Shown here: positions 7,425 through 21,020 of the stretch, piece after piece | Layout of the letters: every line of letters starts with the position of its first letter | How positions within the stretch are numbered: position 1 is the stretch's first letter | NCBI GenBank assembly: GCA_040402815.1 | Contig: JBBALV010000004.1 | Coordinates: 81,797 to 145,796 of the forward strand | DNA from: Flavobacterium sp. | GTDB taxonomy: Bacteria > Bacteroidota > Bacteroidia > Flavobacteriales > Flavobacteriaceae | Direction of reading: 5' to 3' | Length of the DNA stretch: 64,000 nt | The notes under the pieces: generated by a model | What the model was told of the DNA's origin: nothing | The model's database searches: none | The model's input: only the letters and a program-made list of their open reading frames with translations | Position numbers and translations under genes: made by a program

Positions 7425-7477
7425 TTTCAAATCTGTAATTTTTATCTAAAACCATCACCTAAAACCTAAAATCTAAT

Positions 7478-17941: not shown

Positions 17942-18412
17942 TCAAAACAAACTTTGCTGCTCACTTGGATTTTCGTGTTCCAAAAGCCATTTTTTGCGCC
18001 ATAATCCGCTAGCATATCCCGTGAGCGAACCGTCAGAACCAATAACCCGATGACAAGGCACCACAATCCAAAGCGGATTCTTACCGTTTGCAGCAGCTAC
18101 GGCACGAATGGCTTTTATAGCTCCTATTTTCTTGGATAATTCAAGATAACTAATCGTAGTTCCAAACGGAATTCCGAGCAGTTTCGACCAAACTTTTTGT
18201 TGAAAAGCAGTGCCTTTTGGATTAATTTTAAAAGTAAATGAGGTTCTTTTTCCATCAAAATAATCTTGCAATTGGGTAGCCGCTTCTAGAAGTTCACTTG
18301 GAATTTCAGCTGTAATTTCGCCACTATCATCAATTGAAATTTCAGACACACCCAGCTCGTCGCCAGTAATATTAGCCATTCCCAAAGGGGTTTTTATAGT
18401 AATGGTTTTCAT
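17942..18412 (-). CDS. ogt: Methylated-DNA--protein-cysteine methyltransferase
   Basis: GTAFQQKVW, RAVAAAN, VPCHRVIG active site. Confidence 0.93.
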   Translation of the reverse strand: MKTITIKTPLGMANITGDELGVSEISIDDSGEITAEIPSELLEAATQLQDYFDGKRTSFTFKINPKGTAFQQKVWSKLLGIPFGTTISYLELSKKIGAIKAIRAVAAANGKNPLWIVVPCHRVIGSDGSLTGYASGLWRKKWLLEHENPSEQQSLF

Positions 18413-18460
18413 CTGCTTTTCAATAATTAGAGTTGCTTAGTCCTGTTTTTTAATAGAATA

Positions 18461-18614
18461 ATATGACTATCCATAACTTGTACCAATGCTTTATTTTTAG
18501 CCACAGATAGCAAGGATTCTCAAGGATTTTAGAATTAAAACTGAGAAAAATCTGTGATAATCCGTGAAATCTGTGGCTAGTTTTTCTTTTGGCATTACTA
18601 ACGGACAGTCATAT
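18461..18614. repeat. Long intergenic inverted repeat with 9-mer (CACAGATT/AATCTGTG-type) core; MITE/REP-like
   Basis: TAGCCACAGAT 18498-18508 pairs perfectly with ATCTGTGGCTA 18569-18579. Outer arms ATATGACTATCC 18461-18472 and GGACAGTCATAT 18603-18614. Confidence 0.7.
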
Positions 18615-18624
18615 AGCATTAAAA

Positions 18625-18951
18625 TTACTTCAATTTTATGTTGTTGTGATGGCGGTCGTGATCTCGATTGGTTTTCACGTCCATTTTTTTGTCGAAAGCG
18701 GCTTGCAAGTCAATTCCTGTTTGGTTGGCGAGACACAATACTACAAAAACGACATCGGCCAATTCTTCACCTAAATCTTTGTTTTTATCGCTTTCTTTTT
18801 CGGATTGTTCGCCATAACGACGCGCAATAATACGGGCTACTTCACCCACTTCTTCCGTAAGTTGTGCCATGTTGGTCAATTCATTAAAATAGCGAACACC
18901 GTGGTCTTTAATCCAAGTGTCAACGTCTAGTTGGGCATTTTTTAAGTTCAT
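18625..18951 (-). CDS. MazG-like nucleotide pyrophosphohydrolase
   Basis: LTEEVGEVAR and LGEELADV motifs. Confidence 0.9.
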   Translation of the reverse strand: MNLKNAQLDVDTWIKDHGVRYFNELTNMAQLTEEVGEVARIIARRYGEQSEKESDKNKDLGEELADVVFVVLCLANQTGIDLQAAFDKKMDVKTNRDHDRHHNNIKLK

Positions 18952-19001
18952 TTATTTAAATTTTTTTAAATATATAAATTATACTTTTTTGTTCAAAAAA
19001 A

Positions 19002-19454
19002 TTACATTTTATTTTTAGAATCCATAATAATCGTTACTGGACCGTCATTTACAAGCGCAACTTTCATGTCGGCACCAAAAACGCCTGTTTGTATTTTTTT
19101 ACCTATTGTTGCTTCCATTTCGGTAATGAATTTTTCATATAATGGAATGGCTATTTCTGGTCTTGCAGCTTTGATGTAGCTCGGGCGATTGCCTTTTTTG
19201 GTCGAAGCTTGTAGCGTAAATTGACTGACAACAATGATTTCGCCATCAATATCTTTTACAGACAAATTCATTACTTCGTTTTCGTCTCCAAATATTCGAA
19301 GATTAGCAATTTTCTGACAAAGCCAATCAATATCTTCCTGCGAATCCGCTTCTTCAATACCCACTAAAACCAAAAGCCCTTGTTGAATAGTAGCTACTAT
19401 TTTTGAATCGATGGTTACCGATGCGGAAGACACTCTTTGTATAACTGCTTTCAT
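19002..19454 (-). CDS. dtd: D-aminoacyl-tRNA deacylase
   Basis: MKAVIQRV, VSQFTL, GNRPS, GVFGADM, NDGPVT. Confidence 0.97.
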   Translation of the reverse strand: MKAVIQRVSSASVTIDSKIVATIQQGLLVLVGIEEADSQEDIDWLCQKIANLRIFGDENEVMNLSVKDIDGEIIVVSQFTLQASTKKGNRPSYIKAARPEIAIPLYEKFITEMEATIGKKIQTGVFGADMKVALVNDGPVTIIMDSKNKM

Positions 19455-19475
19455 TTAATTATGAATTGTGAATTA

Positions 19476-19521
19476 TGAATTATTGTGTGAATTAATAATT
19501 CACCATTTACAATTCACAATT
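19476..19521. repeat. 46-bp heptamer-based direct repeat, left copy
   Basis: TGAATTATTGTGTGAATTAATAATTCACCATTTACAATTCACAATT. Contains the stop codon of the four-helix-bundle gene. Confidence 0.9.
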
Positions 19522-19879
19522 GTTTTTTTAAGTTTTTTTTGGTTGAAATAATTATAGATGCTAGGAGTTTATTAATTTCAACTATATCAGAATTTAAAGA
19601 ATGAAATTGAGATTCATTCAAATACTCGGATTGAAACAACAATTCCAACCAATAATCACTTTCGTTAGCTTCTTTTTGAGCAATTGCAAGTTTATGAATA
19701 AAATCAGGTTTGCTTTCCGCATGCTCGGATTCTCTCACTAATGCTCCTATAGCGGTACCGCTTCTAAGTAATTGTTTGCTTAAAACAAATTCTTTCTTTT
19801 CAACACATAAAAATTGGTACAATTTTACAATTCTTAATGCAAATGCAAATGATTTTAATTTTATAATATTATCTCCCAT
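19514..19879 (-). CDS. Four helix bundle protein (23S rRNA IVS-protein / bAvd-like family)
   Basis: SFAFALRIVKLY, LSKQLLRSGTAIGA..E, S..DFIHKL.IA.KEA.E..YWLELL are the family signature. Confidence 0.9.
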   Translation of the reverse strand: MGDNIIKLKSFAFALRIVKLYQFLCVEKKEFVLSKQLLRSGTAIGALVRESEHAESKPDFIHKLAIAQKEANESDYWLELLFQSEYLNESQFHSLNSDIVEINKLLASIIISTKKNLKKQL

Positions 19880-19911
19880 AATTAACTATTTTAATGATAA
19901 ATTATAAATAG

Positions 19912-19957
19912 TGAATTATTGTGTGAATTAATAATTCACAATTTACAATTCACAATT
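19912..19957. repeat. 46-bp heptamer-based direct repeat, right copy
   Basis: TGAATTATTGTGTGAATTAATAATTCACAATTTACAATTCACAATT, 45/46 identical to 19476-19521. Overlaps the rsgA stop codon. Confidence 0.9.
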
Positions 19958-20933
19958 ATTTCCTCGTTTCATCACTCGCTTTTCTATCTTCGTCATACGA
20001 ATCAATGCGGTAATGTTCCTCATCACCTTCCAAGATTTTCAGATAAGAATTGTATCTTGACCAGGCAATTTGGTCATTGTCTAAGGCTTTTTTAATTGCA
20101 CAATGGGGTTCTTCTTTGTGCAAACAATTATTGAATTTGCATTGGTCTTTCAACTGGAAAAATTCTGGGAAATAGCCTGAAATTTCTGCGGGTTCCATGT
20201 CAACAATTCCGAAACCTTTTATTCCAGGAGTGTCAATTATTTTAGCATTAAAACTCAAATCATACATTTCGGCAAACGTGGTGGTGTGTTGCCCTTGTTT
20301 ACTGGCTTCCGAAATGGTTTTTGTTTTTAAATGCAAACTCGGTTCCATAGCGTTAACCAAAGTGGATTTCCCAACGCCTGAATGTCCTGAAAACATGCTT
20401 ACTTTGTCCACCATCATTGCTTTCAGCGCATCAATTCCTTTATTATCCTTTGCAGAAACACGCAAACACCGGTAACCAATTGTTTCGTAAACGTGTTGTA
20501 TGTACAATTGTTCGTCTAAAGTAATCGTGTCGAAGGTATCAATTTTATTAAAAACTAAAATGGTTTCGATGCCGTAAGCTTCGGCAGTAACCAAAAAACG
20601 ATCTATAAAATTAAAGGTCGTTGGCGGATTATTGATGGTTATTAACAAAAAAACATAATCTACGTTAGAAGCGATAATGTGCATCTGGTGAGACAAATTC
20701 ACTGATTTTCGCACAATATAATTCTTTCTTTCGTGAATAGTATGAATACTTCCTGTAACAACATCAGAGGTTTCGTCGAGCTCATAATCCACCACATCGC
20801 CCACGGCTATTGGGTTGGTGCTTTTGATGCCTTTCATTCGGAATTTGCCTTTCATTCGGCATTCCATAAAATCACCTGCTTCCGATTTCACGGTGTACCA
20901 ACTTCCGGTAGATTTATAAACGAGTCCTGTCAT
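19956..20933 (-). CDS. rsgA: Ribosome small subunit-dependent GTPase A
   Basis: Circularly permuted GTPase: NKID, GHSGVGKST, HTTT, DTPG, C-terminal CKFNNCLH.EP.CA zinc finger. Confidence 0.97.
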   Translation of the reverse strand: MTGLVYKSTGSWYTVKSEAGDFMECRMKGKFRMKGIKSTNPIAVGDVVDYELDETSDVVTGSIHTIHERKNYIVRKSVNLSHQMHIIASNVDYVFLLITINNPPTTFNFIDRFLVTAEAYGIETILVFNKIDTFDTITLDEQLYIQHVYETIGYRCLRVSAKDNKGIDALKAMMVDKVSMFSGHSGVGKSTLVNAMEPSLHLKTKTISEASKQGQHTTTFAEMYDLSFNAKIIDTPGIKGFGIVDMEPAEISGYFPEFFQLKDQCKFNNCLHKEEPHCAIKKALDNDQIAWSRYNSYLKILEGDEEHYRIDSYDEDRKASDETRK

Positions 20934-20978
20934 GCTACAAAATTAAATCTTTTTAAGTTAAAAATCAGGAACTATTAT

Positions 20979-21020
20979 TACATAAAAAAAGTTGCCAAAT
21001 TTGACAACTTTTTTTATGTA
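20979..21020. terminator. Hairpin with A/T tracts on both sides; terminator for the 21034-21555 gene
   Basis: TACATAAAAAAAGTTG-CCAAATTTGA-CAACTTTTTTTATGTA. Confidence 0.75.

Follow-up and report, generated by a model that had tools for sequence, protein, structure and literature searches.

The closest described systems to the locus examined here are the intervening sequences (IVS) of bacterial 23S rRNA genes and the heptameric repeats of intergenic spacers. In Coxiella burnetii, the 23S IVS carries an open reading frame (ORF) of the S23p family, is closed by a 28-bp terminal stem and is excised by RNase III, and 3-4 tandem GACAGAT heptamers, whose copy number varies by strain, precede the ATG (PMC4990558). 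Heptameric repeats have been reported from the intergenic regions of several other bacteria, namely, the short tandemly repeated repetitive (STRR) sequences of Calothrix and Nostoc, GGGAATC in Xanthomonas, the heptanucleotide sites of Geobacter, and TAACTGA in Beggiatoaceae (PMC4692102, PMC2700814, PMC4679880). The family that includes the S23p proteins (PF05635/TIGR02436) has the conserved motif R-x3-S-x3-N-x2-E, and its genes have been noted earlier within cas operons, where arms were not mentioned (PMC3936711). In the literature that we searched, no paper links PF05635 genes to heptamer arms outside rRNA. We analyzed a 64,000-nt stretch (hereafter the window: assembly GCA_040402815.1, contig JBBALV010000004.1, positions 81,797 to 145,796) of a 2.69-Mb freshwater Flavobacterium metagenome-assembled genome (33% G+C, 93.5% complete), in which a small four-helix-bundle gene of this family lies between rsgA and dtd and is bracketed by arrays of 7-nt units. 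With a probability that we put at roughly 0.6, this cassette, that is, the gene together with its flanking arrays or arms, is the intercistronic counterpart of the ORF-bearing 23S IVS, co-transcribed with its neighbors and with arms that form a long RNA duplex. The features, in window coordinates, are listed from upstream to downstream (D1, direct repeat; I1, I3 and I4, inverted repeats).

19956..20933, minus strand: rsgA (ribosome small-subunit GTPase A), the upstream neighbor; Pfam RsgA_GTPase 2.7e-53, RsgA_N 1.4e-15
19890..19961, minus strand: 5' (rsgA-proximal) arm, 72-nt palindromic copy; D1 and I3, core 19912-19957
19514..19879, minus strand: four-helix-bundle gene, 121 aa, 23S-rRNA-IVS-protein family (PF05635, TIGR02436), intact
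19454..19525, minus strand: 3' (dtd-proximal) arm, 72-nt palindromic copy; D1 and I4, core 19476-19521
19002..19454, minus strand: dtd (D-aminoacyl-tRNA deacylase), the downstream neighbor; Pfam Tyr_Deacylase 2.3e-62
18625..18951, minus strand: MazG-like gene, beyond dtd; Pfam MazG 1.9e-13

The two arms constitute a two-copy direct repeat of 72 nt (19454-19525 and 19890-19961; 89% identity, spacing 436), recovered by a repeat search of the window, with a 46-nt core (19476-19521 and 19912-19957) in which the single mismatch is CACCATT versus CACAATT. The central 17-mer GTGAATTAATAATTCAC occurs twice in the 64-kb window, both times in the flanks, with 0.02 occurrences expected by chance. Both copies are internally palindromic (inverted repeats I3 and I4), each predicted to form an RNA hairpin of 27-29 bp with a 9-nt loop (-20.5 kcal/mol for the rsgA-proximal copy and -21.5 kcal/mol for the dtd-proximal copy), and for this reason they double as inverted repeats of one another (I1: 66 nt, 77% complementary). 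The building blocks are tandem 7-nt units, with period 7 and the consensus AATTATG/AATTCAC assigned by Tandem Repeats Finder (TRF) at C4:101253-101753, the same locus in contig coordinates. In the 5' arm, four GTGAATT-like heptamers, the ancestral arm, are followed by their complement, a lineage-specific addition, and in the 3' arm, a heptamer array that is likewise a lineage-specific addition is followed by the complementary AATTCAC-like array, the ancestral arm. The TAA stop of rsgA (19956-19958) abuts and overlaps the first heptamer of the 5' arm, the TGA stop of the cassette ORF (19514-19516) lies inside the dtd-proximal copy, and the 3' arm ends at the dtd start codon. The first-pass annotation of the window, made from the letters alone, was accurate on all these points: the 46-bp direct repeats with one mismatch, the hairpins built of heptamers and their complement, and the placement of the two stop codons. 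Its remark that recombination between the repeats would spare rsgA, dtd and one repeat is also correct, by geometry only, in that removal of one 436-bp period leaves rsgA, one hairpin and dtd all intact. A search of Rfam gave no rRNA match in 18400-21000; on the hairpin, it returned only sub-threshold matches to plant microRNA-precursor models, which we regard as meaningless.

The cassette protein scores far above the curated cut-offs of both PF05635 (9.1e-27, 93.8 bits; cut-off 33.8) and TIGR02436 (1.6e-28, 99.1 bits; cut-off 24), which confirms its earlier assignment to the 23S rRNA IVS protein family, and matches the PDB entry 2RLD across residues 1-116 (6.6e-42), for which five chains of the same sequence are listed. 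Of the family motif, it retains the R and the E (R-SGT-A-IGA-L-VR-E), with S replaced by A and N by L; the orthologs at the rsgA-dtd site keep the S and have L in place of N, and the high-scoring paralogs retain the motif in full. The cassette protein thus appears to represent a divergent subfamily of PF05635. The dN/dS values of 0.03-0.12 against the site orthologs point to strong purifying selection on the protein, the dN of which is below that of Dtd.

The likeness to the 23S IVS, represented by those of Coxiella burnetii (helix 45) and Leptospira, extends to several features at once: the PF05635 family is shared, the ORF occupies the loop of a stem with complementary termini, tandem heptamers stand directly before the ATG, heptamer copy number varies among strains in both, and the ORF often decays, the IVS having long been suspected to be a former mobile element (PMC4990558). 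Complementary termini of at least 20 bp around an ORF of the S23p family are found here in the I1 inverted repeat, in the predicted RNA fold and in the arms of the relatives. The cassette, however, is located between protein-coding cistrons rather than in an rRNA helix (25 or 45), its flanks are both full palindromes, its protein is intact and strongly constrained whereas the Coxiella ORF is decaying and probably untranslated, and the excision by RNase III that was shown for the IVS would here be an extrapolation. The cassette is a well-preserved representative of a so far undescribed variant of a known element type, the ORF-bearing IVS.

Comparison with the same junction in other species shows that the 46-bp direct repeat is a derived, lineage-specific state and not an attachment site of the family, because the same-site relatives almost all carry plain inverted arms. 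We collected rsgA-dtd junctions from 53 species, and a DNA search of 401 genomes added 22 species with the gene there. The same gene occupies the same site in about 27 other species of the genus, and nearly all of its flanks consist of an upstream array and a downstream complement (plain inverted arrays in the loci denoted L022, L026, L037, L047 and L183-L211), with arms of 26-35 bp. In the ancestral order, the rsgA stop is followed by four to five (A/G)TGAATT-like heptamers, the last one containing the ATG, then by the ORF with a TAA stop, a mini-hairpin of one to two units, an AATTCAC-like array and the dtd start. Compared with these relatives, the host genome has about 50 nt with the complementary array added between the upstream array and the ATG, and a four-unit copy of the upstream array added ahead of the downstream array; in the alignment of the flanks, the ancestral TAA stop is now CAA, and the frame ends at the TGA inside the 3' arm. 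Being palindromes, the copies still pair with one another, and in the minimum-energy fold predicted for the sense RNA (-113.7 kcal/mol, z = -4.5), the ORF is enclosed by a bipartite stem of about 52 bp. Partially palindromized flanks are found elsewhere, with a downstream hairpin in L199 and L196, an upstream hairpin in L204, the beginnings of both in L192, and an upstream hairpin plus a direct downstream array in two other copies in the host genome (C12 and C5:80499); palindromization of the arms, therefore, recurs.

The rsgA-dtd junction is, apart from the cassette, a hotspot for other small palindromic repeats, which are present in L019, L020, L024, L025, L028, L035, L052, L027 and L071. 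The repeat types include GTCATTGCGAGG...CCTCGCAATGAC, GAGACGCGATTTATCGCGTCT and TTTACGGATTTCCGTAAA, and in the L028 spacer, TTGATTTATCGCGTCTGAATATTAAG-type units occur about seven times in tandem.

The insert itself is old and vertically inherited; selection maintains its protein in some lineages, and in others losses have recurred. In the deep-branching species, the gap between rsgA and dtd is 2-9 nt, and the two genes often overlap as TAATG, an abutting arrangement that is the empty ancestral state. In a tree of RsgA and Dtd from the 53 species, the cassette is restricted to one 33-row clade (support 96/96) and is scattered within it, complete in five rows and present as clear remnants in three; every full copy has a sister in another state, and the well-supported branches require at least four changes. 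The remnants are a degraded ORF (L021), a pair of arms around about 50 nt that keep the ends of the ORF (L041), and a stub of the downstream arm (L031), and among the further copies, 5 of 29 are pseudogenes. Among the site orthologs, dS is 0.95-2.0, compared with 1.2-2.4 for dtd and rsgA, and is saturated; because it matches that of the two neighbors, the gene is inherited vertically at the locus.

A paralogous cassette with GTGAATT arms is located just after mazG ('site 2') in L196, L198-L200, L202, L204 and L206. Three genomes carry both the site-1 and the site-2 cassettes, and in the protein tree, a single branch (support 87/86) splits 23 site-1 rows from 7 site-2 rows. The shared arms and this split imply that the unit was copied once, long ago, arms included. 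In the host genome, the corresponding spacer after the MazG-like gene contains no four-helix-bundle gene. The mobile unit proposed in the first-pass annotation survives, then, to the extent that the cassette is a discrete insert, patchy among the 53 species and copied once with its arms, but no present movement is seen. Vertical conservation at the locus, which the same annotation had held to speak against mobility, is apparent from a dS equal to that of the neighbors, yet it coexists with the patchy presence.

Eleven matches to PF05635 were detected in the host genome, six of which have decayed. All 11 copies are located in spacers between same-strand genes (for example, groES|groEL) and all are flanked by 6-7-nt arrays, the sequence of which varies from copy to copy. 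In most copies, the upstream array is complementary to the downstream one, and the mean duplex energy of the cognate 5' and 3' flanks of the 11 paralogs is -32.4 kcal/mol versus -22.3 (sd 6.3) for non-cognate pairs. Across the genus, the median flank complementarity is 33 for 38 cassettes versus 18 for 457 control small genes (Mann-Whitney p = 2e-15), with 28 of the 38 above the 95th percentile of the controls, and both neighbors are co-oriented with the cassette in 32 of 33 cases. A scan of one genome per species across prokaryotes returned 80 loci (79 evaluable) from Bacteroidota, Chloroflexota, Acidobacteriota, Firmicutes, CPR (candidate phyla radiation), Desulfobacterota, Alphaproteobacteria and an archaeon. 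Inverted arms (z >= 4) are present at 55 of the 79, and the best periodicity is 7 in 47 of these 55. As to the matched repeat pairs that the first-pass annotation proposed to look for around each family member, heptamer arrays accompany all the other members in the genome, but mostly as inverted arms.

A set of 12 loci from twelve species (L073-L097), where one gene neighboring the cassette ends in ...FEENWN and the other begins with MINLF..., displays another form of arm variation. The arm core is CTAAG/CTGAG in some of these species and CAAAG in others, and the change runs through all units and both arms, a case of concerted evolution. At the corresponding junction (C2:147572-147682), arms and ORF are both missing from the 95-nt spacer of the host genome.

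Transcription through a cassette was observed in a relative, G248, which is probably F. johnsoniae. On the single, 6,096,872-bp contig of this genome, a cassette of the same subfamily (L212, 913-1356; 125 aa; arms TTGTTAA.../...AATTAAC) has as neighbors a Cys-rich 120-aa gene and a 169-aa gene, presumably cobU-like. Two RNA-seq assemblies contain a contig of more than 8 kb that begins 0-13 nt from the ATG of the upstream gene and spans the cassette, covering the arms, the ORF and the downstream genes. Thus, the arms are present in the operon RNA, and this cassette is co-transcribed with its neighbors. For the rsgA-dtd cassette, two tiny exact contigs inside the ORF were found in the metatranscriptome X27. 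A sigma-70 promoter scan of the cassette gave nothing above the shuffle expectation, with a consensus that is not that of Bacteroidota; no terminator-like site was found in it; and the genome encodes RNase III (rnc).

In the explanation that we favor, a promoterless PF05635 gene would have been inserted long ago into the overlapping rsgA stop/dtd start junction, on the strand of its neighbors, and the ancestral form would have been an ORF in the loop of a 26-35-bp stem between about four GTGAATT-like heptamers and their AATTCAC complement. In the host lineage, each arm would have gained a copy of the other, likely either by palindrome-templated copying in place or by gene conversion from one complementary array to the other. 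The cassette would be transcribed by read-through from rsgA, and the duplex formed by its RNA would be one bipartite stem of about 52 bp or, alternatively, a pair of local 27-29-bp hairpins. RNase III, as in the 23S IVS, may then cut the duplex, freeing the cassette RNA and separating the rsgA and dtd messages. The direct repeats would have no dedicated role in recombination and, at most, would make the locus prone to deletion down to a solo hairpin.

Several considerations weigh against this scenario. The palindromization route, likely as it seems, is a reconstruction, the cleavage of the arms by RNase III is an analogy with the 23S IVS, and the RNA data are assembled contigs. Among the arm mismatches of 38 pairs, counted on the sense strand in an ambiguous register, G.U is seen 44 times and A.C 71 times, without wobble excess, so that there is no positive signature of selection at the RNA level. 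About 19% of the aligned arm positions are mismatched, mostly at variable sites between conserved 4-5-nt cores, a pattern that looks more like arrays of binding sites than like a stem optimized for pairing. Furthermore, if a duplex were all that is required, the 7-nt periodicity would be unaccounted for, as would the approximately 86 other intergenic short-period arrays in the genome, some of which have no complementary partner.

These arrays deserve separate consideration. In the intergenic regions of the genome, TRF detects about 96 short-period arrays; most have period 7, and only about 10 of the 96 adjoin four-helix-bundle genes. Many of the approximately 86 solo arrays consist of a heptamer array, a short loop and a complementary array, located between co-oriented genes, and about nine have the GAATT-type unit of the cassette. 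In L041, such a hairpin was produced from the cassette by deletion of the ORF, and at C4:2496 in the host genome, the loop of a solo hairpin looks like a fusion of the ORF's first bases with the last ones of the 3' spacer, although the match is short. Some of the solo hairpins, though not necessarily all, are likely to be cassettes without an ORF. Heptameric spacer repeats in other bacteria are similar in comprising about four to five 7-nt units, often next to start codons and sometimes as inverted pairs. The published ones, however, have no linked gene family, whereas here the arrays bracket PF05635 genes and some of the solo hairpins look like ORF-less derivatives of cassettes, as in L041. 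Within the window, one solo hairpin, at 53817-53897, with same-strand genes on either side, combines AATTATA/AATTATG units, the loop GGTTTTGCCTTTCG and TAACTTA/TAACTCA units. Immediately upstream of another start codon, at 7446-7476, a CTAAAAC-type array is unpaired, its spacer containing no complementary counterpart (fold energy 0); some arrays, therefore, are not halves of a stem.

The scenario implicit in the first-pass annotation, in which the hairpin is an attachment site and the ORF excises and integrates together with one hairpin via the 46-bp direct repeats, in the absence of a dedicated recombinase, now appears unlikely. Whereas the geometry of the 436-bp period permits a clean deletion, and near-identity over 46-72 bp suffices for homologous or slippage deletion, the plain inverted arms of about 27 same-site species cannot excise by recombination of direct repeats, so the role of the hairpin as an attachment site is not borne out. 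The numerous solo hairpins, particularly those with the GAATT-type unit, would resemble empty sites, but the single-hairpin empty allele that this scenario calls for was not found at the rsgA-dtd junction in 53+29 species, where empty sites contain no repeat and the remnants are an internal ORF deletion (L041) or an arm stub (L031). Eight metagenome assemblies from several studies (X1-X8) hold the host organism or close strains; all retain the cassette, and none of their contigs contains the joint of a 436-bp deletion, which is weak evidence given that contigs hide rare variants. The single copying of the cassette with its arms and the recurrence of one-sided hairpin flanks (L199, L196, L204, L192, and the host's C12 and C5:80499) are compatible with excision and reintegration; against this, the saturated dS, equal to that of the neighbors, implies no recent movement, and no target-site duplication is visible when filled and empty junctions are compared. 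Hence the model of a unit that excises itself by means of its direct repeats does not hold up. In a natural strain variant about 99.5% identical to the host, present in two runs from a single study (X4 and X5), the dtd-proximal array is longer by exactly one TGAATTG unit, placed after 19461, which indicates that the arrays vary by unit slippage, as reported for the Coxiella IVS (PMC4990558); in the same variant, A>G at 19516 abolishes the TGA stop of the cassette, and the frame would continue into the hairpin. Far less credible still is the notion that the repeats are unrelated to the gene, being either low-complexity sequence that arose by chance or simply the terminators of an AT-rich spacer. 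A genome with 33% G+C and about 96 short-period arrays lends this notion some initial plausibility, but the presence of the 17-mer core at exactly two flanks with 0.02 copies expected, the arm complementarity far above that of the 457 control genes, and the recurrence of period-7 arms across phyla effectively refute it, and the cassette lacks a terminator-like site.

A competing explanation that we entertain tentatively, as distinctly less probable than the RNA duplex, is that the heptamer arrays, as RNA or single-stranded DNA, are bound by the pentameric protein of their own cassette, with approximately one 7-nt unit per protomer, and that the stem is secondary; the gene, the arms and the ORF-less heptamer hairpins would then make up one self-maintaining system. 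In the arms, a conserved core of 4-5 nt indeed recurs every 7 nt, separated by variable linkers and typically in 4-5 units, and the arrays published from other bacteria also mostly comprise four or five (PMC4692102, PMC2700814). Five chains are listed for 2RLD, the solved structure nearest to the protein, and the homolog from Xanthomonas forms a homopentamer (cited in PMC4990558). Conservation is higher in the protein than in Dtd, and the arm motifs shift in concert, through all units and both arms, between CTAAG and CAAAG at one orthologous site; similarity of protein and arms would be equally expected, however, if whole cassettes descended from a common ancestor. In heptamer type, the solo arrays loosely resemble those that flank the genome's own four-helix-bundle genes, but the matching of solo arrays to own and foreign cassettes (one mismatch, all rotations, both strands) is too permissive in AT-rich 7-mers to mean anything, and six of the 11 genome copies are pseudogenes that nevertheless retain their arrays. 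Comparably speculative is a broader proposition whereby PF05635 proteins are sequence-reading partners of heptamer arrays, each protomer of a pentameric ring reading about one 7-nt unit, and the cassettes, solo hairpins, STRR-type repeats of other phyla and 23S IVS all belong to one system that colonizes transcribed junctions, copied arms included, with the palindromized direct-repeat flanks as its excision-competent form. We are more doubtful about a role of the stem in limiting damage, whereby the arms would rejoin the rsgA stop and the dtd start, preserving the ancestral translational coupling across a 500-nt insertion, and would also sequester the start codon of the cassette. This proposal accounts for the incorporation of the cassette ATG into the last heptamer, for the overlap or 2-9-nt distance between stop and start in the empty relatives, and for the position of the arms in filled sites, 0-3 nt past the stop of the upstream gene at one end and no more than about 10 nt from the start of the downstream gene at the other. 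But any insert in a 2-nt spacer abuts both genes, so that the geometry is not independent evidence, and two local hairpins, an available fold of the flanks in the host, would leave the codons apart.

Beyond the IVS, the cassette invites comparison with several kinds of mobile or hypervariable systems. Avd, the accessory protein of diversity-generating retroelements (DGRs), is a pentamer with a related four-helix-bundle fold that binds nucleic acid and reverse transcriptase, and PF05635 has reportedly been discussed together with DGRs in one paper. The likeness is in the fold and the pentameric assembly; unlike in a DGR, there are no template and variable repeats, the neighbors are rsgA and dtd, and no match to the reverse transcriptase family PF00078 was found in the whole 93.5%-complete genome. 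As in integrons, a small, promoterless, co-oriented ORF is combined with an imperfect palindrome whose structure, rather than sequence, is conserved between cassettes, and a hairpin is present on each side of the ORF, as in attC-ORF-attC. However, this is a single cassette and not an array, no integrase or other tyrosine recombinase gene (PF00589) lies near it, the five such genes being elsewhere in the genome, the half-sites of the relatives are on opposite sides of the ORF, and the arms are tandem heptamers rather than attC R/L boxes, for which no formal search was made. With the REPIN-RAYT systems (hairpins of repetitive extragenic palindromic, REP, sequences and their associated transposases) and with MITEs (miniature inverted-repeat transposable elements), the cassette shares dispersed intergenic hairpins and a gene-bearing 'master' copy flanked by repeats of the same kind. 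The gene, however, is not a transposase, the RAYT in this genome (C18:18133-18594, PF01797 1e-30) has unrelated TCCCTAAGGGA REPs, and, in contrast to MITEs and transposons, there is no target-site duplication and the 11 genome copies differ in arm sequence. Membership in each of these classes, integron, RAYT, DGR and MITE, was rejected, as a defining feature is lacking in every case.

Other genes bracketed by repeats were encountered along the way. Among the top 'controls' in the scan for flank complementarity are a GIY-YIG gene (C34:2573-2857) bracketed by GCTGAACTAGTTTCAGCATCTT / AAGATGCTGAAACGAGTTCAAC and the RAYT-like Y1 transposase at C18:18133-18594, flanked by REP hairpins of the TCCCTAAGGGA type. 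In the window, between the MazG gene and a 156-aa gene, a solo hairpin with 31-bp arms, GCCACAGATAGCAAGG...CCGTGAAATCTGTGGC, is present at 18500-18577 (-33 kcal/mol). Inverted repeats of this type, GCCACAGAT/ATCTGTGGC, bracket two genes (C9:66056-66427 and C2:164735-165130) of the family PF13366 (PD-(D/E)XK, 'GxxExxY') elsewhere in the genome, apparently a further class of hairpin-enclosed small ORF that also has copies lacking the ORF.

Taken together, the features of the rsgA-dtd locus join three loose ends: the origin and purpose of the rRNA IVS, a question dating from about 1990; the function of the four-helix-bundle S23p proteins, which are relatives of the DGR protein Avd; and the excess of 7-nt tandem repeats in spacers across many bacteria. 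The genus offers a natural series at one junction, empty, filled, pseudogenized, ORF-deleted, reduced to an arm stub, and palindromized, along with a second site, and a tractable relative, presumably F. johnsoniae, in which a cassette of the same subfamily is co-transcribed, provides a convenient experimental model. With this series and this model, it becomes testable whether the arms are RNase III sites, protein-binding sites, or recombination sites.

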